The position numbers and the translations under genes are program-made. From positions 2,902 to 66,901 of the forward strand of contig JAZNCU010000029.1 in the NCBI GenBank assembly GCA_045587745.1: a DNA stretch of 64,000 nt, written 5' to 3'. The stretch is from Eubacteriales bacterium. Its GTDB lineage: Bacteria; Bacillota; Clostridia; Oscillospirales; CAG-382. Position 1 is the stretch's first letter, and every line of letters starts with the position of its first letter. The notes under the pieces were generated by a model. It was not told the DNA's origin, did no database searches, and saw nothing but the letters and a program-made list of their open reading frames with translations. This document shows, one piece after another, positions 2,723 through 36,502 of this stretch.

Positions 2723-5212
2723 ATGCCTAACAGTATCAACCACGACAGCATTAAAAAAGCATTAACCGATAAGCTCTCCCGTTACTTTGGTATCCCCGCA
2801 GAGGATGCCGATATCAAGCAGGTATACAAAGCGACCGTCCTCTCGGTTCGTGATCTTTTGGGAAGTATGAACAAGGATTTCTCCGATAAGGTCAACGAGA
2901 CCGGCGGTAAGCAGGTATACTATATGTGTATGGAGTTCCTTGTAGGACGCTCCCTCAAGCTTAACCTCTGCAACCTCGGCATCGAGGAGGAATACCGCAA
3001 GGTTCTCTCGGAATTGGGATTTGACCTCGAGGATGTCTATGAGATAGAGCCCGATCCCGGTCTCGGCAACGGCGGTCTCGGAAGACTGGCATCCTGCTTT
3101 ATGGATGCGCTTACGTATCAGAATTATCCTGCCAGAGGCTATTGTATACTTTATGAATACGGCCTTTTCAAGCAGAGATTAGTTGACGGCGAGCAGCTTG
3201 AGCTGCCCGACATCTGGCTTCCCGACGGCGAGTGCTGGCTCGTCCCCCGTCAGGATAAGGCGGTTACCGTCCGTTTTGGAGGTACTATCCGCGAGGAGTG
3301 GCGCGATAACCACTGCGAGATCATTTATGAGGATTACAGCGAGGTAGAGGCAGTACCCTACGATATGCTTATCTCGGGCAAGCCCGGCGGCGCCGTAAAT
3401 ACTCTCCGACTCTGGAAGGCGAGAGATATCAACAACTTCAATATGGAGGCGTTTTCGCAGGGACAGTACCTGAAGGCTGTTGAGGAAAATACTATGGCGG
3501 AGACTATATCAAAGGTGCTTTATCCTGCCGATAACCACCACGAGGGCAAGCTGCTTCGTCTTACACAGCAGTATTTCCTGGTTTCCGCTTCGCTCCAGAA
3601 TATCGTTGACCGTCATTTGTTCCTTTATAAATCGCTTGATAACCTTCCCGATAAGGTTGCTATCCACATCAACGATACTCACCCTGCGCTATGTATCCCC
3701 GAGCTGATGCGTATACTTATCGATAACCATCACTGCAGCTGGGAAAAGGCATGGGATATTACAAGGCGCACCGTTTCCTATACCAACCATACCGTTCTTC
3801 CCGAGGCGCTTGAATGCTGGAACGAGAATCTGTTTGCTATCAAGCTGCCCCGTCTGCACTCTATTATTAAAGAAATCAACCGCCGCTTCTGCGCCGAGGC
3901 GTGGGATGCGTTTATGGGCAACTGGGACAAAATCAGCCGTATGTCCATCCTCAACAAAGGTCAGGTCAAAATGGCAAACCTCTCGGTTATCGGCTCCCAT
4001 ACCGTGAACGGCGTTTCAAGATTGCACTCGGATATACTCAAGGAGACGGTTTTCAAGGATTACAACGATATGTATCCCGAGCGCTTTACCAACGTTACCA
4101 ACGGTATCGCTCACCGTAAATGGCTGTGCTATTCCAACCCCCGTCTGGCTTCGCTTCTCGATTCCACCATCGGTACCGGATACCGTGACAGACCCGAGGA
4201 GCTCTCACGCTTTATGTCCTGCTATGATGATAGGAGCGTGCTTGACGAGCTCGACAGGATCAAAAAGCTCAACAAGATCGATTTTTCCAACTATATGATG
4301 CAGACTGCCGGAGTCAGCATAGATCCCGACAGCATCTTTGACGTGCAGGCAAAGAGATTGCACGAGTACAAGCGCCAGCTTCTCAATGCGCTTAACATTA
4401 TCACGCTTTATCTCAAGCTCAAGGATAACCCCGATGCCGACGTAAAGCCTACCACCTTTATTTTCGGTGCAAAGGCGGCACCCGGCTATTACACGGCAAA
4501 GGATATTATCCGACTTATCTGTTACATTGCGGCAGATATCGAAAAAAATCCGAGGATCAGAGAAAAGCTCCGTGTTGTATTCCTCGAGAACTATAACGTT
4601 ACCCTTGCCGAGCATCTTATGCCCGCCGCCGAGATAAGTGAGCAGATCTCGCTCGCAGGCAAGGAGGCAAGCGGCACCGGCAATATGAAGTTTATGATCA
4701 ACGGTGCCATCACCGTGGGTACTCTCGACGGAGCAAACGTCGAGATGGCCGAGCGTGTGGGCAGGGACAACATCTATATATTCGGCCATACCGCTCCCGA
4801 GGTTGAGGAGCTTTGGCGTAAGGGCTATGCGTCTTCCTATTATTACAATAGGAACGAATCTCTTAAGCGTGCCATCGACTATCTGCAGGTCGGATTCAAC
4901 GGACGCAGCTTTTCGGATATCGCAAATTACCTCCTGTTCTCGCACGGTGTTTCGGATCCCTTTATGTGTCTTGCCGACTTCGATTTTTATACCGAGGCTC
5001 GCCGCAATATGCTTGAGGCTTACTGCGACCGCGATAAATGGAACCGTATGTCACTTTGCAATATTGCTTCGGCCGGCTTTTTTGCCGCCGACCGAAGCAT
5101 CAGGGATTACGCAGAGAATATCTGGCATATGAAGCCTGTCGAGACGTGCGGCAATGCTTCTGCCAAGACAGCAAAAACTACTGCAAAAAAGGCTGCTAAG
5201 AGCAAAAAGTGA
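2723..5212 (+). CDS. glgP: alpha-glucan (glycogen) phosphorylase, GT35
   Basis: 829 aa. It shows EPDPGLGNGGLGRLASCFMDA, the pyridoxal-phosphate lysine region EASGTGNMKFMINGA, and TNHTVLPEALE. Confidence 0.95.
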   Translation: MPNSINHDSIKKALTDKLSRYFGIPAEDADIKQVYKATVLSVRDLLGSMNKDFSDKVNETGGKQVYYMCMEFLVGRSLKLNLCNLGIEEEYRKVLSELGFDLEDVYEIEPDPGLGNGGLGRLASCFMDALTYQNYPARGYCILYEYGLFKQRLVDGEQLELPDIWLPDGECWLVPRQDKAVTVRFGGTIREEWRDNHCEIIYEDYSEVEAVPYDMLISGKPGGAVNTLRLWKARDINNFNMEAFSQGQYLKAVEENTMAETISKVLYPADNHHEGKLLRLTQQYFLVSASLQNIVDRHLFLYKSLDNLPDKVAIHINDTHPALCIPELMRILIDNHHCSWEKAWDITRRTVSYTNHTVLPEALECWNENLFAIKLPRLHSIIKEINRRFCAEAWDAFMGNWDKISRMSILNKGQVKMANLSVIGSHTVNGVSRLHSDILKETVFKDYNDMYPERFTNVTNGIAHRKWLCYSNPRLASLLDSTIGTGYRDRPEELSRFMSCYDDRSVLDELDRIKKLNKIDFSNYMMQTAGVSIDPDSIFDVQAKRLHEYKRQLLNALNIITLYLKLKDNPDADVKPTTFIFGAKAAPGYYTAKDIIRLICYIAADIEKNPRIREKLRVVFLENYNVTLAEHLMPAAEISEQISLAGKEASGTGNMKFMINGAITVGTLDGANVEMAERVGRDNIYIFGHTAPEVEELWRKGYASSYYYNRNESLKRAIDYLQVGFNGRSFSDIANYLLFSHGVSDPFMCLADFDFYTEARRNMLEAYCDRDKWNRMSLCNIASAGFFAADRSIRDYAENIWHMKPVETCGNASAKTAKTTAKKAAKSKK

Positions 5213-21589: not shown

Positions 21590-21600
21590 ACGAATAATCA

Positions 21601-21633
21601 AAAATCCACTCTTTATCCCAAAGAGTGGATTTT
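21601..21633 (+). terminator. Rho-independent terminator of the sugar operon
   Basis: A 14-bp stem, AAAATCCACTCTTT / AAAGAGTGGATTTT, with loop ATCCC, followed by TATTATTT. Confidence 0.8.
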
Positions 21634-21646
21634 ATTATTTGCAGTT

Positions 21647-21796
21647 ATATTATTGCCTTGCGGCAATAGTTATTTTAACTTGCAAAGCAAATACCACTCG
21701 GCGTTAGCCGAATACCACTGCGAAGCAATATCACTCGCTGAATTACATTCAGCGAAAAAAACTGCGAGGCTCCCCAAAGGTTACTTCTCATAAGGA
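21647..21796. repeat. hairpin-array repeat, copy A (about 150 bp)
   Basis: Successive short palindromes are separated by ATAYCAC(T)-like linkers: ATTGCC/GGCAAT, TTGC/GCAA, TCGGC/GCCGA, TGC/GCA and TCGCTGAAT/ATTCAGCGA. The array is collinear with 22846-23038. Confidence 0.8.
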
Positions 21797-21800
21797 TGTT

Positions 21801-21833
21801 AAAAACCGACAGGATTTCGTTCTGTCGGTTTTT
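21801..21833 (-). terminator. Rho-independent terminator downstream of the AT-rich HIT gene (symmetric)
   Basis: Stem AAAAACCGACAG / CTGTCGGTTTTT with a 9-nt loop. T-runs are present on both strands. It lies 23 nt past the HIT gene stop. Confidence 0.75.
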
Positions 21834-21855
21834 GTTTTACGGATTGAAATAAATA

Positions 21856-22314
21856 TTACAATAGTTTTTCCAATTCTTTCAATAATTTTGTTTTCATCTC
21901 GTTTAATTCTTCCGTAGAAGGCCGATTATCCGAACTATACATCTTATCTATCGGATACCACCACACAGGACCTTGACCATTATTTCCGTAGTGTTCCAAG
22001 TCTCCTTTTACTCTCGGAAACAAGTGCCAGTGCAGATGTGTATCTCCGTTTCCTAATAGTTCATAATTCATTTTCTCTGCCCCAAACGCTTTCGCAACAG
22101 CTTCAGCAACGATAGACATTTCTTCCATGAACTTGATTTTTATACTACGTTTTAATTGAAATAGTTCCGTTATATGTTCTTTGCACAAAAATAGAGTGTA
22201 ACCCTTAAAATGTTGATTGTCTCCGATGACTACGTAACCTGTTACTAATTCTTTAACAAACCAAGGATTGGTATTTTCCTCGATCATTTTTATTCTATCG
22301 CATATTAAGCACAT
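21856..22314 (-). CDS. HIT (histidine triad) family protein, AT-rich paralog
   Basis: 152 aa with an N-terminal C-x-x-C (MCLICDRI) and the histidine triad THLHWHLFPR. The gene is markedly more AT-rich than its flanks. Confidence 0.8.
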   Translation of the reverse strand: MCLICDRIKMIEENTNPWFVKELVTGYVVIGDNQHFKGYTLFLCKEHITELFQLKRSIKIKFMEEMSIVAEAVAKAFGAEKMNYELLGNGDTHLHWHLFPRVKGDLEHYGNNGQGPVWWYPIDKMYSSDNRPSTEELNEMKTKLLKELEKLL

Positions 22315-22421
22315 AGATAACTCACCGCCGTAAACATTTACTAAATAAACATACTAAGACACAAGAAGAACCAGCATCGCAATTGTATGTACAAATGCAC
22401 TATTGGGATAACCCCAACCCA

Positions 22422-22772
22422 TTATTTAGATTTTATGGTTTTTAATGAAGAAATTAATATTCTGCGAATTGCGCCGGGATCGTTCTGCAATGTTTTATAT
22501 TCTTCTTCATTCATACAATCTGTTTCAAAAAGAATCTCTAACCAATATTCTGTTTCGTAACATTCTTTTTGGGCTATTTCAAGCTTTGAAATAAAATCGT
22601 TAGTACTTTGGGCATATTGCGCTTCGTGTAGATTTGCGCCAATGGAAGTAGCAGAACGAAGTAATTGGTTTATCAAAACCGATTCTTTGTGCTTTGATTT
22701 CATATCACGGCAAAGAAAAACAACCGCCTTAGCAAATTCTTTTGCCTTTTCTCTTAAAATACTATCCGCCAT
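22422..22772 (-). CDS. four-helix-bundle protein (23S rRNA intervening-sequence protein / PF05635-like)
   Basis: It shows the signature LLRSATSIGANLHEAQ plus F..KL.IA.KE..ET.YWL. The likely start is ATG 22772 (MADSILREKAKEF, 116 aa). The track ORF extends to 22820. Confidence 0.75.
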   Translation of the reverse strand: MADSILREKAKEFAKAVVFLCRDMKSKHKESVLINQLLRSATSIGANLHEAQYAQSTNDFISKLEIAQKECYETEYWLEILFETDCMNEEEYKTLQNDPGAIRRILISSLKTIKSK

Positions 22773-22845
22773 TCTTATCACTTCAAAATTCACTATACAC
22801 AGAAGAATAATGCTTTTCAAGTTTTATTACGACTTCGTCGGTGTG

Positions 22846-23038
22846 ATATTATTGCAAAAAGCAATAGTGTTATTGAAACCTTGCGGTTTCAGTGTTATTT
22901 TATTCGCCAAACTCGGCGTAGCCGAATATCACGATGCGCAGCGTCATATCACTGCGAAGCAATATAACTCGCCAAATATATTTGGCGAATAAAACTGCGA
23001 GACTTCCTTATGAGAAGTCACGCAAAGGAAGCCTCGCC
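22846..23038. repeat. hairpin-array repeat, copy B (about 193 bp)
   Basis: It has the same module order as copy A, including ATATTATTGC..GCAATAGT, ACTCGGCG(T)TAGCCGAATA, ATAYCACTGCGAAGCAATAT and AAAACTGCGAG. Two extra hairpin modules are present. Its last nested hairpin abuts the tsf stop. Confidence 0.8.
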
Positions 23039-23046
23039 TAAAATTA

Positions 23047-23967
23047 TCAGCCGTTAACGAGCTTGTCGATTTCTGCTGCGAAATCGTCTTCTCTCTTCTC
23101 AATGCCTTCGCCGCGCTCGTACTTGATGAACTTAACGATCTTAATGCTGCCGCCAAGCTCTTTAGCAACGGATGCGGTGTAGGAACCAACGGTCATATCC
23201 TCGTCCTTAACGTAAGCCTGCTCGGTGAGACAGTTGTTATCGTAGAACTTGCTGATTCTGCCGGTAACCATCTTCTCTTTAACTGCGTCGGGCTTGCTTG
23301 CGAGCTTGGGATCGTTGGAAATCTGAGTGAGGAGGATCTCCTTCTCGCTCTCAACAACGCTTGCGGGAACCGAAGCGATGTCAACGTAGCCGGGGTTCAT
23401 AGCAGCGATCTGCATACAAACGTTCTTTGCATACTCGTTGAAAGCATCCTTGTCGCCGCAATCGGTATCAAATACGGTAACAACGCCTGCGCTTCCGCCG
23501 CCGTGAATGTAGGTGCCTACAACGCCGTCAAGAATATCAAAACGACGGATGCTCATGTTCTCACCGATGGTGAAGATCATGTTCTTGAGCTCAGCCTCAA
23601 CGGTAACGTCGGTTCCGTCGAAGTTAAGAGCGTTAAGAGCAGCAAGATCAGCAGGCTTGTTGGCAACGATAGTTCTGAGAATGCCCTTTACAAAGTCCTT
23701 GAATGCCTGGTTCTTTGCAACGAAGTCGGTCTCAGCGTTAACCTCGATAATAGCGGTGCAGCCGTTATCGGAAAGAATATCTACAATACCCTCTGCAGCG
23801 ATTCTGTCAGCTTTTTTAGCTGCAACGGAAAGTCCCTTTTCACGGAGATATTTGATAGCCTCGTCAAAATTGCCGTCCGACTCAACAAGTGCCTTTTTGC
23901 ACTCCATCATGCCGCAACCGGTCTTCTTACGGAGCTCCATTACGTCTTTTGCGGAAATGTTAGCCAT
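23047..23967 (-). CDS. tsf: translation elongation factor Ts
   Basis: The N-terminus is a UBA-like domain, MANISAKDVMELRKKTGCGMMECKKAL.ES.GN.DEAI..LREKG. The preferred start is ATG 23967 (GGAGG 8 nt upstream). Confidence 0.95.
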   Translation of the reverse strand: MANISAKDVMELRKKTGCGMMECKKALVESDGNFDEAIKYLREKGLSVAAKKADRIAAEGIVDILSDNGCTAIIEVNAETDFVAKNQAFKDFVKGILRTIVANKPADLAALNALNFDGTDVTVEAELKNMIFTIGENMSIRRFDILDGVVGTYIHGGGSAGVVTVFDTDCGDKDAFNEYAKNVCMQIAAMNPGYVDIASVPASVVESEKEILLTQISNDPKLASKPDAVKEKMVTGRISKFYDNNCLTEQAYVKDEDMTVGSYTASVAKELGGSIKIVKFIKYERGEGIEKREDDFAAEIDKLVNG

Positions 23968-33521: not shown

Positions 33522-36158
33522 ATGCAACCGCTTTCTCTTAACGTTATCCGCAAAAAATATCTCGAGTTTTTTGAGAGCAAGGGACACCTCTGCCTCAACT
33601 CGTTCCCCCTCGTTCCTCAGGACGATGACTCGCTTTTGCTTATAAACGCAGGCATGGCACCCCTTAAGCGCTATTTCACGGGCGAGCGTGTTCCTCCGAG
33701 AAAAAGAGTTACCACCTGCCAAAAATGCGTGCGTACTCTCGATATCGACAACGTCGGTAAAACCGCACGTCACGGCACCTTCTTCGAGATGCTTGGCAAC
33801 TTCTCCTTTGGTGATTATTTCAAGGAGGAGGCTATTCCCTGGGCGTGGGAATTCCTTACCAAGGTTATGGAAATCCCCGAGGACAGGCTCTATCCCTCGG
33901 TTTACGTTGAGGACGACGAGGCTTTTGATATCTGGGTTAAAAACGGCGTGCCTGCCGATAGAATAGTCCGTCTCGGCAAGGATGATAATTTTTGGGAAAT
34001 CGGCTCGGGTCCCTGCGTCCCCTGCTCCGAGATCTATTTTGACCGCGGACTCAAATACGGCTGCGGCAGGCCCGATTGCAAGCCCGGCTGTGAGTGCGAC
34101 AGATTTATTGAAATTTGGAACATAGTATTTACTCAGTTCGACAGTGACGGAAACGGCACCTACACCCGTCTTGCTCACCCCAATATCGATACCGGTATGG
34201 GACTCGAGCGCCTTGCCTGCGTAATGCAGGACGTAGGTAACCTTTTTGAGGTCGATACAAACAAAACCATTATGGACAAGGTGTGCTCTATTGCAGGCAA
34301 AACCTACGGCGGAAGCGCTGCTGACAGCGATGTATCGCTCCGTGTTATTACCGACCACATCAAAACCGCAACCTTCCTTATCGGCGACGGCGTTATTCCC
34401 TCCAACGAGGGCAGGGGATATATCCTCCGCCGTGTGCTCCGCCGTGCGGCGCGTCACGGACGTCTTCTCGGCATCAAGGGTACATTCCTCGGTGAGGTTT
34501 GCGATACCTGTATCGAGATGAATCAGGGCGCTTATCCCGAGCTTGCCGACCGTAAGGAATATATCAAAAAGACCATCAAAGCCGAGGAGGACCGCTTTGC
34601 GCAGACCCTCGATGCAGGTCTTGCAATTCTTGATAAAATGCTTGCTTCGGTTGTTGCCGAGGGCAAAAACGTTCTCTCGGGAGCCGATGTATTCAAGCTC
34701 TACGATACCTTCGGATTCCCCATTGATCTCACTAAGGAGATCACCTCCGAGAAGGGTATTACTGTTGACGAGCAGGCGTTCACCGCACTTATGCTCGAGC
34801 AGAAAAAGCGTGCACGTGAGGCCAGAGCAAACATCGATGCCGGTTGGACGGGCGACGGACTTTCGATGATCGATAAGAGCGTCAAGACTGTTTTTGTCGG
34901 CTATACCGAGCTTGAGTGCGATTGCAATATCGAGTATATTCTTGCAAACGGCGAGGATATGGGTGTTCTTGCATCGGGCGATGCAGTTATTATTACAGAT
35001 AAAACTCCCTTCTATGCCGAGAGCGGCGGACAGATAGGCGACAATGGCACTATCACCACCCAGAGCGGCGTATTTACGGTTACCGATACCAAAAAAACCC
35101 CCGAGGGACAGTACCTCCACGTAGGATATGTCTCCGAGGGAAGCATTGCAAAGGGTGCGGCTCACGCATCTGTATGCGCTAATACGAGATACGCTATTAT
35201 GCGTAACCACTCCTCGCTCCATCTGCTTCAGGCAGCACTCCGTAAGGTGCTCGGAAGCCACGTCGAGCAGGCGGGCTCCTATGTAAGCGCAAGCATCGGC
35301 AGGTTTGACTTTACCCACGGAAGCGCACTTACCTCCGAGGAGATTGCTCTCGTTGAGGATGAGGTCAACAATGCAATTCTTGCAAACCTTGCCGTTACCA
35401 CAGCCGAGATGAGCATCGACGAGGCGCGTGCCTCGGGCGCTATGGCTCTCTTTGGCGAAAAGTACGGTGACAGCGTCCGTGTTGTTTCTATGGGCGAGTT
35501 TTCCAAAGAGCTTTGCGGCGGCACCCACGCAAGCGCAACCGGTAACCTCGGCGCATTCCGTATACTTTCGGAGTCCTCCGTTGCCGCAGGCGTCAGAAGA
35601 ATCGAGTGTGTGACGGGTATGAACACCGTTGCCGTTATGAAGAATAACGAGCAGCTTATTGCTACTCTTGCTTCCAAGCTCAAATCCACCGGAAGCGACG
35701 ATCTTCTCCGCAAGGCAGATGCTCTTACCGATGAGGTAAAGAGACTTAAAAAAGAGCTTGAGGCCGCAAACCGCAAGCTGGCTCTCTCCTCGATCGACGA
35801 TGCTTACAACAATGCTGTCGTGATCGGAAGCGTCAAGCTCGTTAAAGCCAACTTTGACGGTATAGCTATTGATGCGCTTCGTGATTCTGCCGACTCGGTA
35901 GTTCAAAAGGATGCATGCGCTGTTTGCCTGTTCTCAACCGTTGTTGACGGAAAGCTCCTCCTCGCATCCGCTTGCGGCGAGAGTGCGGTCAAGGCAGGCG
36001 CACACGCAGGTAATTTGCTCAAGGCTGTATCGCCCATCGTAGGCGGCGGCGGTGGCGGAAGACCCAACAGCGCAACTTCCGGCGGAAAGGATGCTGCCAA
36101 GCTCCCCGAGGCATTTGCCGAGGCAGATAAAATTCTTGCATCACAACTGAAAGGATAA
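33522..36158 (+). CDS. alaS: alanine--tRNA ligase
   Basis: 878 aa. It shows FFESKGH, the class II motif-2 region RHGTFFEMLGNFSFGDYFK, the editing domain HSSLHLLQAAL...CGGTH, and a C-terminal DHHA1 with GGGGGGRP. Confidence 0.97.
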   Translation: MQPLSLNVIRKKYLEFFESKGHLCLNSFPLVPQDDDSLLLINAGMAPLKRYFTGERVPPRKRVTTCQKCVRTLDIDNVGKTARHGTFFEMLGNFSFGDYFKEEAIPWAWEFLTKVMEIPEDRLYPSVYVEDDEAFDIWVKNGVPADRIVRLGKDDNFWEIGSGPCVPCSEIYFDRGLKYGCGRPDCKPGCECDRFIEIWNIVFTQFDSDGNGTYTRLAHPNIDTGMGLERLACVMQDVGNLFEVDTNKTIMDKVCSIAGKTYGGSAADSDVSLRVITDHIKTATFLIGDGVIPSNEGRGYILRRVLRRAARHGRLLGIKGTFLGEVCDTCIEMNQGAYPELADRKEYIKKTIKAEEDRFAQTLDAGLAILDKMLASVVAEGKNVLSGADVFKLYDTFGFPIDLTKEITSEKGITVDEQAFTALMLEQKKRAREARANIDAGWTGDGLSMIDKSVKTVFVGYTELECDCNIEYILANGEDMGVLASGDAVIITDKTPFYAESGGQIGDNGTITTQSGVFTVTDTKKTPEGQYLHVGYVSEGSIAKGAAHASVCANTRYAIMRNHSSLHLLQAALRKVLGSHVEQAGSYVSASIGRFDFTHGSALTSEEIALVEDEVNNAILANLAVTTAEMSIDEARASGAMALFGEKYGDSVRVVSMGEFSKELCGGTHASATGNLGAFRILSESSVAAGVRRIECVTGMNTVAVMKNNEQLIATLASKLKSTGSDDLLRKADALTDEVKRLKKELEAANRKLALSSIDDAYNNAVVIGSVKLVKANFDGIAIDALRDSADSVVQKDACAVCLFSTVVDGKLLLASACGESAVKAGAHAGNLLKAVSPIVGGGGGGRPNSATSGGKDAAKLPEAFAEADKILASQLKG

Positions 36159-36163
36159 TAAAA

Positions 36164-36502
36164 ATGGACTGCCTGTTTTGTTCTATCATCAAGGGCGATA
36201 TTCCCTCTGCAAAGGTTTTTGAAAACGATAGTGTCTATGCCTTCAAGGACATTAACCCCAATGCTCCCGTCCACGTTTTGGTTGTCCCCAAAATGCATAT
36301 TGACTCGCTTGATTGCGTCTGCACCGACAACCTTTCTGCCGTTTCGGCGGTTGTTGCAGCTATCCCCGAGGTTGCAAGGCTTTGCGGACTTGTCGGCGGC
36401 TACCGTGTAATTACGAATATCGGTGAGGACGGCGGACAGAGCGTCAAGCACCTCCATTTCCATATTCTGGGCGGCGAAAAGCTACCCGTAAAACTCGCTT
36501 AA
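36164..36502 (+). CDS. HIT family protein (Hint-like nucleotide hydrolase)
   Basis: 112 aa with CLFCSIIKGDIPS and the histidine triad HLHFHILGG. Confidence 0.9.
   Translation: MDCLFCSIIKGDIPSAKVFENDSVYAFKDINPNAPVHVLVVPKMHIDSLDCVCTDNLSAVSAVVAAIPEVARLCGLVGGYRVITNIGEDGGQSVKHLHFHILGGEKLPVKLA

Follow-up and report, generated by a model that had tools for sequence, protein, structure and literature searches.

A probable non-autonomous gene cassette nested in the terminator hairpin after tsf of an Oscillospirales bacterium

The AT-rich islet found downstream of tsf in the 64-kb stretch of DNA analysed here (the window) is probably a non-autonomous cassette that was mobilised in trans and inserted into the loop of a terminator hairpin. 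The insert extends from 21778 to 23023 and has a G+C content of 35.6%, compared with 48.3% for the window as a whole, which confirms by computation the AT-richness relative to the flanks on which the initial annotation had remarked. In 300-nt windows the G+C content dips to 0.32-0.38 across 21650-23000, with both flanks at 0.45-0.60, and a composition scan of the 64 kb revealed that the lowest value for any other 1250-bp stretch is 0.420. The two minus-strand genes that the islet was said to contain, encoding a HIT protein and a PF05635-type protein, both exceed the cut-offs of their profiles, and the normal Hint paralogue placed at 36164 is a real gene (36164-36502) directly past alaS. Inspection of open reading frames and domain profiles agreed that integrase and transposase genes are absent inside the islet. 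As the islet lacks a mobility enzyme of its own, mobilisation in trans, which had been raised as an option at the outset, fits the data. In an Rfam search of the window no rRNA was detected and no RNA family reached its gathering score, Gut-1 being visible only when the search was permissive. The features of the locus, which are defined in part by comparison with the metagenome contig L001, are as follows, in order from tsf.

23047-23967, minus strand: tsf (EF-Ts, 306 amino acids), the host gene upstream of the insertion.
23027-23038, minus strand: 5' arm of the split target hairpin, GGCGAGGCTTCC, from comparison with L001.
23024-23025, minus strand: left copy of the 2-bp target duplication TT, the empty-site loop being TTTG.
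21778-23023, minus strand: inserted element of 1,246 bp, from the occupied window versus the empty site of L001, with its ends set by the duplication analysis.
22997-23023, minus strand: left-end hairpin H0, with the sequence GCGTG-ACTTC-TCATAAG-GAAGT-CTCGC.
22820-22997, minus strand: Gut-1-type array B, which is repeat B; RF01706 at 22921-22997, 48.3 bits, E 5.5e-8.
22792-22820, minus strand: promoter-like site TTGAAA-17-TATAGT before the PF05635 gene, followed by the ribosome-binding sequence GAAGTGAT.
22422-22772, minus strand: PF05635/TIGR02436 four-helix-bundle protein (S23p/Avd fold), 116 amino acids, from domain profiles.
21856-22314, minus strand: cargo gene encoding a HIT-family protein of 152 amino acids; PF01230, 30.9 bits, cut-off 21.5.
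21803-21835, no strand assigned: internal stem-loop AAAAACCGACAG...CTGTCGGTTTTT past the cargo gene, read from the sequence.
21778-21799, minus strand: right inverted repeat ACATCCTTATGAGAAGT with terminal AACCT, an inverted copy of the left repeat.
21776-21777, minus strand: right copy of the 2-bp target duplication TT, from the empty-site comparison and duplication analysis.
21764-21774, minus strand: 3' arm of the split target hairpin, GGGAGCCTCGC, from comparison with L001.
21640-21764, minus strand: resident, gene-less and truncated Gut-1-type array A, which is repeat A; RF01706 at 21686-21764, 40.2 bits, E 5.9e-6.
21601-21633, no strand assigned: bidirectional terminator common to the isomerase gene and the tsf side, outside the element.

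That the islet is inserted DNA of foreign composition, as the initial annotation supposed, is borne out by strains with an identical EF-Ts. The empty allele is present in L001, in which tsf is followed by a single terminator-like hairpin and then by one repeat, and in L005, while the window, L002, L003, L007 and L010 are occupied. The empty site with a single repeat between the isomerase gene and tsf, which had been anticipated, is thus found in two contigs; the empty/occupied comparison seen directly is of one pair only. L001 reads GCGAGGCTTCC-TTTG-GGGAGCCTCGC, then AGTTTTATTC, the TTTG forming the loop of a hairpin of 11 pairs, eight of which are G-C, that was scored as terminator-like in a terminator scan. 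This unsplit hairpin, 10 nt past the tsf stop codon, serves at once as the terminator-like structure that follows tsf and as the end hairpin of the resident array, and its 4-nt loop is the junction of the islet. Read on the minus strand the element starts with GCGTGACTTC and ends with GAGAAGTAACCT. Exactly the same junction holds a second end-hairpin variant in L004, L006, L008 and L009; in L008 the end hairpin is followed by unrelated sequence and the assembly may be chimeric. As tsf already leads to the convergent isomerase gene in the empty contig L001, the break in tsf-pyrH-frr order remarked on initially was not caused by the islet.

It could be argued that there has been no mobility, the islet being ancestral and the 'empty' contigs deletion derivatives. 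The direct repeats would be able to promote deletion, and CCTTTG is common to both junctions in the window. Such a deletion, however, must regenerate a hairpin of 11 perfect base pairs around a 4-nt loop, the same architecture recurs in around 40 unrelated terminators in many species, with several copies per genome, and the foreign composition is evident everywhere. We find this explanation barely credible.

The ends of the element carry terminal inverted repeats of 17 nt that match at 16 positions, the left copy (ACTTCTCATAAGGAAGT, 23002-23018) being contained within H0. Only two such inverted-repeat sites occur in the window, compared with a chance expectation of 0.12. The core TAAGGA/TCCTTA is conserved at the ends, the sequences of which are GCGAGACTTCTCATAAGGAAGT and ACATCCTTATGAGAAGTARCC, and in the commonest end type the outermost 4-5 nt differ between the two ends. 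H0 is followed by the U-rich tail AGUUUUAUU, and is thus terminator-like in appearance; in relatives it exists as at least six sequence types, each then followed by the invariant CAGTTTTATTCGCC. At the opposite end the internal stem-loop, to judge from its sequence, is probably the terminator of the cargo gene, and relatives contain an equivalent hairpin just before the right inverted repeat.

The collinear direct repeats that first drew attention to the islet extend over approximately 21640-21775 and 22820-23000, are 1233-1234 nt apart from start to start and display about 73% column identity; as stated previously, a third copy is absent from the 64 kb (Rfam at E<=1 and an nhmmer array profile). 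Both are Gut-1-type hairpin arrays and not att sites. In the window, arrays A and B score just below the RF01706 gathering threshold of 50 bits, and the nhmmer array profile assigns 147 bits to array B and 54 bits to array A. The arrays of relatives pass the Gut-1 threshold (59.1, 55.2, 53.7, 53.3 and 50.8 bits), and one relative, L093, is the same locus as the RF01706 seed member BAAZ01025322. Alignments to the model display the RF01706 layout, consisting of three short hairpins with GUGAAAU-like single-stranded linkers. Array B comprises hairpins H1-H7 with linkers AGUGNUAUU in the first half and AAUANCACU in the second half, the second-half linkers being the reverse complement of those in the first, and the repeat unit of the array is the 9-mer AGTGNTATT. 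Across 63 arrays, compensatory changes are evident at 20 of the 40 consensus pairs. Pairing between first-half and second-half linkers, which would generate a rod of four-way junctions, was considered and rejected, as the central variable positions do not covary.

Rfam describes Gut-1 as a stand-alone small RNA of unknown function that is found only in gut metagenomes (RF01706; Weinberg et al. 2010, PMC2864571). This motif, with its three hairpins and GUGAAAU-like linkers, corresponds to the first half of the array and is on the same strand. In contrast with the Rfam description, however, it here makes up half of a longer array, which constitutes the left end of the putative mobile cassette and is located directly upstream of the PF05635 promoter. 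The array may act as RNA, single-stranded DNA or double-stranded DNA. As this promoter is downstream of the array, the array lies outside PF05635's own transcript. Relatives conserve TTGAAA-N17-TATAAT and GAGGTGAT, and the distance from the end of the array to the PF05635 start codon is fixed at 47 nt in nearly all loci.

The initial annotation favoured Campbell-type integration through the direct repeats, in which a circle with a long repeat would have entered a chromosomal repeat by homologous recombination. It is true that repeats of around 73% identity surround most of the islet, that arrays do exchange sequence (the initial 52 nt of repeat B in L002 are of repeat-A type) and that in a few relatives (L085, L091 and L064) PF05635 lies between two arrays. 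The junctions, however, are in the 4-nt hairpin loop, outside the homologous region, and are marked by the 17-nt inverted repeats and the 2-bp duplication, while nothing at the empty site corresponds to the right end (inverted repeat and AACCT). The sole array of L001 is nearly identical to array A, with few substitutions, agreeing with it along its full length with no sign of an A/B hybrid, and around 40 other insertions lack a second array, their flanks being the two arms of an ordinary terminator. Campbell-type integration is thus very improbable. Array A is present in empty and occupied strains alike, in a fuller version in L005. Repeat B belongs to the insert, as its left-end module, and repeat A to an older, gene-less resident relative; there are two direct repeats because the insert landed in the end hairpin of this decayed member of the same family. 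In L064, L091 and L093 arrays are located past an intact terminator and do not split one. The fear that the repeat family might be widely dispersed with no link to variable DNA proved half right: the family is indeed widely dispersed, but its association with variable DNA is tight.

The islet is a member of what is apparently a large, undescribed family of elements in gut Clostridia (Oscillospirales). A genome scan identified at least 356 stretches encoding a relative of the PF05635 protein, and the best 80 of these (80-96% protein identity), which were fetched, derive from many MAGs, several of which contain two or more copies. Around 40 related elements in other Oscillospirales genomes are each located in the loop of a different intrinsic terminator. 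Both ends were set in 37 elements of 0.8-2.3 kb, the window's own included, and these have a G+C content of 0.32-0.39 in every case, with hosts at 0.37-0.59. The common build consists of an end hairpin, a Gut-1 array of about 180 nt, a promoter, PF05635, one variable cargo, a terminator and the right inverted repeat. In 30 of 36 insertions the host flanks form arms that are fully complementary over 5 nt or more (median 11), which is reached in 9% of trials with mismatched flank pairs; the arms are usually preceded by an A tract and followed by a T tract. Nine more insertions, of a second end type, have complementary host arms of 9-11 nt. Of 34 insertions, 31 display the 2-bp duplication, while in 500 trials with permuted flanks the count averaged 16 and never exceeded 24. 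Only TT and TA occur as the flanking dinucleotide, which tends to track the cargo lineage (TA in all four elements with AraC cargo), and the two ends co-vary between end types. The target terminators are alike in shape but unrelated in sequence; they belong to protein-coding genes, some sites being after 5S rRNA or tRNA genes. A metagenome scan with the right inverted repeat yielded 12 more cassettes. Carriage by phages or plasmids was considered and rejected. Beyond these genomes, a fecal 'phage' contig that carries its own array matches the PF05635 gene and the sequence just upstream with 72% identity, and two Nostoc plasmids match the PF05635 gene only; no Gut-1-type arrays were found in a viral contig collection. 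Our search of the literature on PF05635/S23p, Gut-1 and mobile insertion cassettes returned no description of a terminator-nested cassette family.

The hallmarks of a mobile cassette are evident: there is no internal transposase, sites are polymorphic for presence and absence, about 40 distinct sites are used with several per MAG, and terminal inverted repeats are accompanied by a target-site duplication of constant length. In the mechanism that we favour, a transposase encoded elsewhere would insert the cassette in trans, recognising the inverted ends through their TAAGGA/TCCTTA core and making a cut with a 2-nt stagger in the middle of targets that are palindromic and form hairpins. Searches of the window, of approximately 0.6 Mb of sequence from the fetched loci and of the 12 metagenome loci identified by their right ends yielded no partner transposase with matching ends, and none of the cargo slots examined in relatives contains a transposase or recombinase. 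Also counting against this mechanism are the differing outermost 4-5 nt of the commonest end type, the single empty/occupied pair seen directly and the arrays located past an intact terminator, and the six or more end-hairpin types could hardly all be recognised by one transposase. The tracking of cargo lineage by the dinucleotide, moreover, could also be explained by a recombinase with a crossover dinucleotide that moves together with the element. Thus, in an alternative model, a serine, IS110-like or tyrosine recombinase acting in trans would join the palindromic junction of an excised circle to the centre of the hairpin target, with the 2-bp core as the crossover. The ends and all the targets are palindromic, with the exchange point at the centre; only TT and TA flank the elements, tending to go with the cargo lineage; and the presence of two end-hairpin variants at the identical tsf junction points to a positionally precise process. 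The left end, which is long, structured and non-coding, also recalls the guide-RNA region of IS110-type elements. Against this model, no recombinase is encoded in or near any element examined, the targets are alike in structure and not in sequence, unlike those of known site-specific systems, and the ends are inverted rather than direct copies. We consider site-specific recombination unlikely.

The second question posed by these elements is the role of the PF05635 protein. The open reading frame spans 22422-22820 with a probable start at 22772, and the product matches PF05635 with 91.9 bits (cut-off 33.8) and TIGR02436 with 102.8 bits (cut-off 24); an exact-protein look-up returned no record of this precise sequence. 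The nearest solved structure is 2rld (E 7.6e-30), and an AlphaFold2 model (pLDDT 93.3) gave Foldseek TM values of 0.92 to 2rld, 0.83 to 2gsc and 0.80 to Avd (4dwl), the range for Avd and the ribonucleoprotein of diversity-generating retroelements (DGRs) being 0.80-0.81. A median dN/dS of 0.052 indicates strong purifying selection, and PF05635 is the core gene of the element family. The protein shares with Avd, the accessory protein that partners the reverse transcriptase in DGRs (PDB 4dwl, 8ub7), the four-helix-bundle fold, a small size and basic character, and a gene that adjoins a structured non-coding region. Unlike the Avd of DGRs, however, it is accompanied neither by a reverse transcriptase nor by a template/variable repeat pair, and sequence identity is about 17%. 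A DGR reading was indeed rejected, as no reverse transcriptase is present in the islet or in the cargo slots examined, and so was the notion that the repeats are a template/variable pair, since A and B are non-coding and their differences are not adenine-specific. PADLOC matched neither the HIT nor the PF05635 protein to a defence system. The array probably supplies binding sites for the PF05635 protein, the pair having a putative role in regulation or mobility.

It has to be considered whether mobility could instead be mediated by RNA. A putative PF05635 pentamer would bind Gut-1 RNA and recruit a cellular reverse transcriptase or nuclease, such that the cassette homes to hairpin loops, and the intervening sequences of 23S rRNA that encode S23p would have the same origin. 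Among the parts of the elements only PF05635 and the array are invariant, and they are always adjacent, the protein being under strong purifying selection, the array hairpins being maintained by compensatory changes and the fold matching those of Avd and the DGR ribonucleoprotein. The 23S intervening sequences share the S23p ORF, inverted repeats, upstream heptamer repeats and a hairpin position (PMC4990558), and two relatives are located directly after 5S rRNA genes. A reverse transcriptase, however, is absent from all elements examined, and the combination of inverted ends and a 2-bp duplication is the classic signature of transposition at the DNA level. The array is also outside the PF05635 transcript, and reverse-complement linkers that do not covary fit a double-stranded DNA site in both orientations better than a single-stranded RNA motif. 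RNA-mediated homing appears to us improbable. A broader proposal assigns to PF05635 and the array themselves the task of targeting or mobility in an unrecognised 'hairpin-loop homing' class, directed at terminators, the element's own end hairpins and rRNA helices, in which an Avd-like pentamer binds the 9-mers and the S23p intervening sequences are fossil members; this is speculative, and we would not expect it to prove correct.

The cargo of the islet is a HIT protein with the histidine-triad motif (HxHxHxx) HLHWHLF. In relatives the slot is occupied by methyltransferases, GNAT acetyltransferases, AraC/GyrI regulators, an HTH protein, Nudix or HIT proteins, or by nothing. The same HIT family is also found outside such elements in other contigs, which says only that cargo is drawn from a common accessory gene pool.

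The cassettes have features in common with several known systems. Mobile insertion cassettes and MITEs, such as MIC231, which is mobilised by IS231A in the Bacillus cereus group, likewise combine short terminal inverted repeats with a target-site duplication, contain one or a few passenger genes but no transposase gene, and display many copies per genome with insertion polymorphism between strains. IS231A reportedly favours terminator-like GGG(N)5CCC targets with A/T tracts alongside. In contrast, the duplication described here is of 2 bp at the very centre of a hairpin loop, each cassette keeps a non-transposase core (Gut-1 array, promoter and PF05635), the left end is itself a conserved hairpin, of which there are several covarying sequence types, and no parent insertion sequence is known. 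IS1397 and ISKpn1, which are autonomous IS3-family elements with their own transposase and a 3-4-bp duplication, insert in the loops of REP/BIME palindromes. The cassettes resemble them in that extragenic palindromes are entered at their loop or centre and the duplication is short, but these two target a sequence-defined repeat family, while the terminators used by the cassettes are unrelated and share only their shape. The 23S rRNA intervening sequences with S23p ORFs, known from Coxiella, Leptospira and Brucella, occupy helix 25 or 45; they are AT-rich 'selfish' DNA, the mobility of which has been proposed since 1993 and never shown (PMC4990558). They and the cassettes share the PF05635/S23p gene, AT-richness, inverted repeats that form a long closing stem (predicted for the cassettes), tandem or interspersed repeats of 7-9 nt upstream of the ORF and a location at the tip of a pre-existing hairpin. 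The cassettes differ in residing in the terminators of protein genes (some after tRNA or 5S genes) and not in helix 25 or 45, in having a promoter, cargo genes and present-day insertion polymorphism, and in that RNase III processing is, for them, putative.

This study provides a genomic identity for Gut-1, an orphan Rfam family that has had no known function since 2010, and a context for PF05635/S23p, a very large family that lacks an assigned function and whose close relatives in gut metagenomes number in the thousands. It also points to a tidy lifestyle for selfish DNA in a compact genome, nested in a transcription terminator. In the trans-mobilised cassette model the terminator loop would be a safe harbour, the cassette supplying a terminator-like hairpin for the upstream gene together with its own promoter and terminator, and with these the neighbouring genes are probably hardly disturbed. 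In the predicted RNA fold of a whole minimal element the host arms and inverted repeats close together, and in a read-through transcript they would pair into a single long stem like that of the 23S rRNA intervening sequences. By this route small accessory genes, encoding methyltransferases, acetyltransferases, regulators, Nudix and HIT proteins, are carried in many uncultured gut Oscillospirales. Finally, the 30-year-old question of the origin of the S23p-encoding 23S intervening sequences, and of the role of their ORF in mobility, becomes testable with living, polymorphic copies.

The G+C content of the islet, calculated in 300-nt windows, is 0.32-0.38 between ~21650 and 23000, compared with 0.45-0.60 in the flanks. 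The insert itself (21778-23023) has a G+C of 0.356 against 0.483 for the window as a whole, and the lowest 1250-bp stretch elsewhere in the 64 kb is at least 0.420. The AT-richness proposed in the initial annotation is thus borne out by computation, and profile scores confirmed that the two minus-strand genes are of the HIT and PF05635 types.

Features of the islet and its neighbours
up to 21589: convergent sugar operon, which ends here
21640-21764: resident gene-less array (repeat A)
21856-22314, minus strand: HIT protein gene, the cargo (PF01230, 30.9 bits)
22422-22772, minus strand: four-helix-bundle protein gene (PF05635, 91.9 bits; TIGR02436, 102.8 bits)
22820-22997: array of the insert (repeat B)
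23047-23967, minus strand: tsf, upstream of the islet on the same strand, as is rpsB

The ordinary Hint gene that had been placed at 36164 is also real; it directly follows alaS (878 aa; 33522-36502 for the pair), encodes a housekeeping protein of 112 aa with the motif HLHFHIL, and is the normal-composition paralog of the cargo HIT protein.

Thirteen metagenome contigs encode an EF-Ts identical to that of the window (306 aa). In the contig L001 the same isomerase gene lies 209 bp past tsf, with no PF05635 or HIT gene in between, and L005, in which the resident array is fuller, provides a second allele of the empty site that had been sought at tsf; the islet is present in L002 and L003. In the orientation of tsf the empty site reads TAATTTTAGGCGAGGCTTCC-TTTG-GGGAGCCTCGC-AGTTTTATTCGCTG..., the occupied left junction ...GGCTTCCTTT|GCGTGACTTCTCATAAGGAAGTCTCGCAGTTTTATTCGCC... 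and the occupied right junction ...AACATCCTTATGAGAAGTAACCT|TTGGGGAGCCTCGCAG.... Comparison of these sequences shows that 1,246 bp were placed in the 4-nt loop of an 11-bp hairpin, which a terminator scan detects in the empty site (8 G-C pairs, tail AGTTTTATTC). The insert termini are inverted repeats, ACTTCTCATAAGGAAGT and ACATCCTTATGAGAAGT, that agree at 16 of 17 positions; the window has no further site of this kind, against a chance expectation of 0.12.

The initial annotation had favoured Campbell-type integration of a circle through long direct repeats. The two collinear repeats that it described do exist, with an identity of ~73% and a spacing of 1233-1234 nt, and no third copy was found in the 64-kb window. 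The array of the empty site, however, is of the repeat A type throughout, with no A/B mixture, and both junctions fall outside the stretch of homology, so exchange within the repeats is excluded. The insert is foreign in composition, as proposed, and the other suggestion made, a cassette mobilised in trans, fits, but Campbell integration is highly improbable. The islet is most likely such a trans-mobilised cassette.

The same site holds other alleles. L004, L006, L008 and L009 carry a second element variant at exactly the junction used in the window, just after the tsf stop, with the end-hairpin loop CGTTTTGG (end hairpin GCGAGACTTCC-GTTTTG-GGAAGTCTCGC); either the site was struck twice or the hairpin loop was swapped. 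In L008 (1059-1161) the sequence after the end hairpin resembles no array and no other locus, and this contig may be a chimeric assembly or may contain a different type of element with the same hairpin. Nearby, the bidirectional terminator that separates the isomerase gene from the resident array (21601-21633) has identical stems among strains and a loop that is inverted, GGGAT in the window and L011 and ATCCC in L012 (~975-1010), a hairpin-loop flip polymorphism.

Both repeats match a single Rfam family, Gut-1 (RF01706), on the minus strand, scoring 48.3 bits at 22921-22997 and 40.2 bits at 21686-21764 against a gathering score of 50; arrays in relatives reach that threshold (50.8-59.1 bits). 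Gut-1 was reported in 2010, solely in human gut metagenomes and without an assigned function or associated gene (PMC2864571). In the authors' own alignment the flanks share the extended layout of the window arrays: a G+C-rich hairpin, GUUAUAUUCGCC, small hairpins separated by GUGAUAU, GGCGAAUAUAA, and further hairpins separated by AUAUCAC (PMC2864571). The locus of one Gut-1 seed sequence (BAAZ01025322.1) is L093 (MT835815.1, labelled 'Bacteriophage sp.', which its record marks as unverified), which runs on into a PF05635 gene just short of which the 2010 contig had stopped.

The target hairpin at tsf, GCGAGGCTTCC-TTTG-GGGAGCCTCGC, precedes AGTTTTATTCGC and an array, and this whole unit is homologous to a left-end hairpin with its Gut-1 array; the window thus contains a nested insertion. 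The target hairpin with array A belongs to an older relative that lost its genes, and the bracketing repeats of the initial annotation correspond to the arrays of two elements, B of the new and A of the old. The same nesting is seen in L020, and solo or partial arrays occur in L064, L084 and L085. The window element and that of L002 are ~98% identical overall and differ mostly in hairpins H1, H3 and H4; the first 52 nt of array B in L002 are of the repeat A type. Between 22921-22997 of the window and 2477-2580 of L002, each difference swaps a whole hairpin, and hairpin units seem to be shuffled among arrays by recombination, not point mutation.

More than 4,800 proteins are related to the PF05635 protein at E<=1e-10, and identity is 82% or higher for each of the best 120. 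Scanning one genome per species gave at least 356 loci with a relative, of which the best 80 were retrieved. These come from MAGs of Acutalibacteraceae, Oscillospiraceae and other Eubacteriales of the human and ruminant gut, several of which carry two or more copies. Homology to the window extends from the left-end hairpin to ~55 nt past PF05635 and returns, in some loci, at the right inverted repeat. Thirty-seven elements, including that of the window, could be delimited at both ends (0.8-2.3 kb); all have a G+C of 0.32-0.39, with host flanks at 0.37-0.59. In the relatives examined, the slot between PF05635 and the right end varies in gene content. SAM-dependent methyltransferases are the commonest cargo; others are GNAT acetyltransferases, AraC-type regulators with a GyrI/Cass2 domain, an HTH protein, a lipoprotein, a zinc-ribbon membrane protein, a Nudix hydrolase, an MFS-like transporter and, in the window, HIT, while L017 has no cargo beyond the remnant of a methyltransferase gene. 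Transposase, integrase and reverse transcriptase genes are absent from all elements whose slots were examined. Relatives of the HIT cargo (78-85% identical) also occur without PF05635, arrays or inverted ends, in L106-L113 (2501-2962 in L106) within an HTH, methyltransferase and HIT trio upstream of asp23-nusB-xseAB, gene kinds that serve as cargo in other elements, and in L114 (2501-2971) alone between convergent genes.

In 30 of 36 elements the flanks adjoining the two ends pair without mismatch for 5 nt or more (median 11), usually with an A tract before and a T tract after; when flanks were paired across different loci, 5 nt was reached in 9% and 6 nt in 2% of trials. Nine further elements with a second end type have complementary host arms of 9-11 nt followed by T tracts. 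The element usually begins 13-30 nt after the end of the upstream gene, which is co-directional in ~27 of 32 cases, and the downstream gene is convergent in 25 of 31. Insertion thus targets loops of intrinsic, mostly bidirectional terminators, which have a common shape and no common sequence. Separately, array and PF05635 lie directly after a 5S rRNA gene in L064 (4-334) and L091 (3660-3980) and after a tRNA gene in L093 (2204-2520); in all three loci the preceding terminator is intact, not split. A ZMP/ZTP riboswitch downstream of the L064 element (3680-3759, 53.8 bits) has no bearing on the finding.

In 31 of 34 elements the dinucleotide left of the end hairpin equals that starting 5 nt past ...GAGAAGT (permuted flanks: mean 16, maximum 24 in 500 trials). 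This match represents a duplication of 2 bp, either TT or TA, and the window has TT (23024-23025 and 21776-21777). AraC/GyrI-cargo elements have TA in four of four cases (L030, L033, L043 and L060) and methyltransferase-cargo elements mostly TT, and the flanking dinucleotide may travel with the element lineage. It could be argued that a site-specific recombinase with a 2-bp crossover core is responsible, as the TT/TA choice is linked to lineage and one junction was used repeatedly; with targets that share no sequence, we consider this unlikely.

The conserved core was derived from 63 arrays.

Anatomy of the core, from the left end
1: end hairpin H0, of at least six sequence types, all hairpins, then invariant CAGUUUUAUUCGCC
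2: hairpins H1-H4, separated by AGUGNUAUU
3: GGCGAAUAAAA, which could pair with the 5' UUUUAUUCGCC
4: hairpins H5-H7, separated by AAUANCACU
5: TTGAAA-N17-TATAAT, GAGGTGAT and the PF05635 start codon, a fixed 47 nt from array end to start

Compensatory changes in 20 of 40 consensus pairs indicate that the hairpins are selected as single-strand structures. The linkers of the second half are the reverse complement of those of the first, with no covariation between the two at the variable central position; one recognition site in both orientations fits better than linker-linker pairing. In L034, L051, L066 and L075, palindromes of 40-45 nt, such as CUUUUGGAAUAUCUCGCC-GUUG-GCGAGGUAUUCCAAAAG upstream of PF05635, replace H3 or H6 and look like smaller-scale hairpin-in-hairpin insertions.

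The PF05635 protein has a median dN/dS of 0.052 at a median dS of ~1.1 (1,851 pairs), indicating that the family is old and the protein functional. Its nearest solved structure by sequence is 2rld (E 7.6e-30), and its AlphaFold2 model (pLDDT 93) has TM scores of 0.92 to 2rld and 0.83 to 2gsc; the protein carries no catalytic signature and has no match in PADLOC. The model also resembles Avd of the Bordetella phage retroelement (4dwl, TM 0.80) and the retroelement ribonucleoprotein 8ub7 (TM 0.81). An RNA-based route via an Avd-like protein is nevertheless very unlikely, and a diversity-generating retroelement is ruled out as there is no reverse transcriptase.

Similarly, the element is not a 23S rRNA intervening sequence, as it is located outside 23S rRNA. 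Several of its traits do recur in the intervening sequences that bear S23p: this gene, inverted repeats at the termini, short repeats preceding the ORF and a position at the tip of a hairpin; its predicted read-through stem would also resemble theirs. How those sequences arose and whether they move is still described as unclear (PMC4990558). The window element behaves like a mobile insertion cassette or cargo-bearing MITE, and the defining features of these that were tested are present, except that no parent element turned up in the window, the retrieved loci or 12 metagenome loci with the right end.

Insertion polymorphism, 2-bp duplication, loop-centre targets and the lack of an enzyme on board are established, and an absence of all mobility is barely credible. 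The inverted ends co-vary between end types around a common TAAGGA/TCCTTA core. We propose that a transposase encoded elsewhere would bind these ends and make cuts staggered by 2 nt in the middle of a hairpin target, palindromic or extruded. The left-end hairpin and its U-rich tail would then stand in for the split terminator of the upstream gene, and an internal promoter would drive PF05635 and cargo up to an internal terminator. In read-through RNA, host arms and inverted repeats are predicted to close one long stem. The PF05635 protein probably recognises the 9-mer array as its set of binding sites.

In the literature searched, the element family is undescribed and Gut-1 has never been linked to PF05635, though an earlier description elsewhere is possible. 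What sets the element apart is its unusual target and its unusual conserved core.
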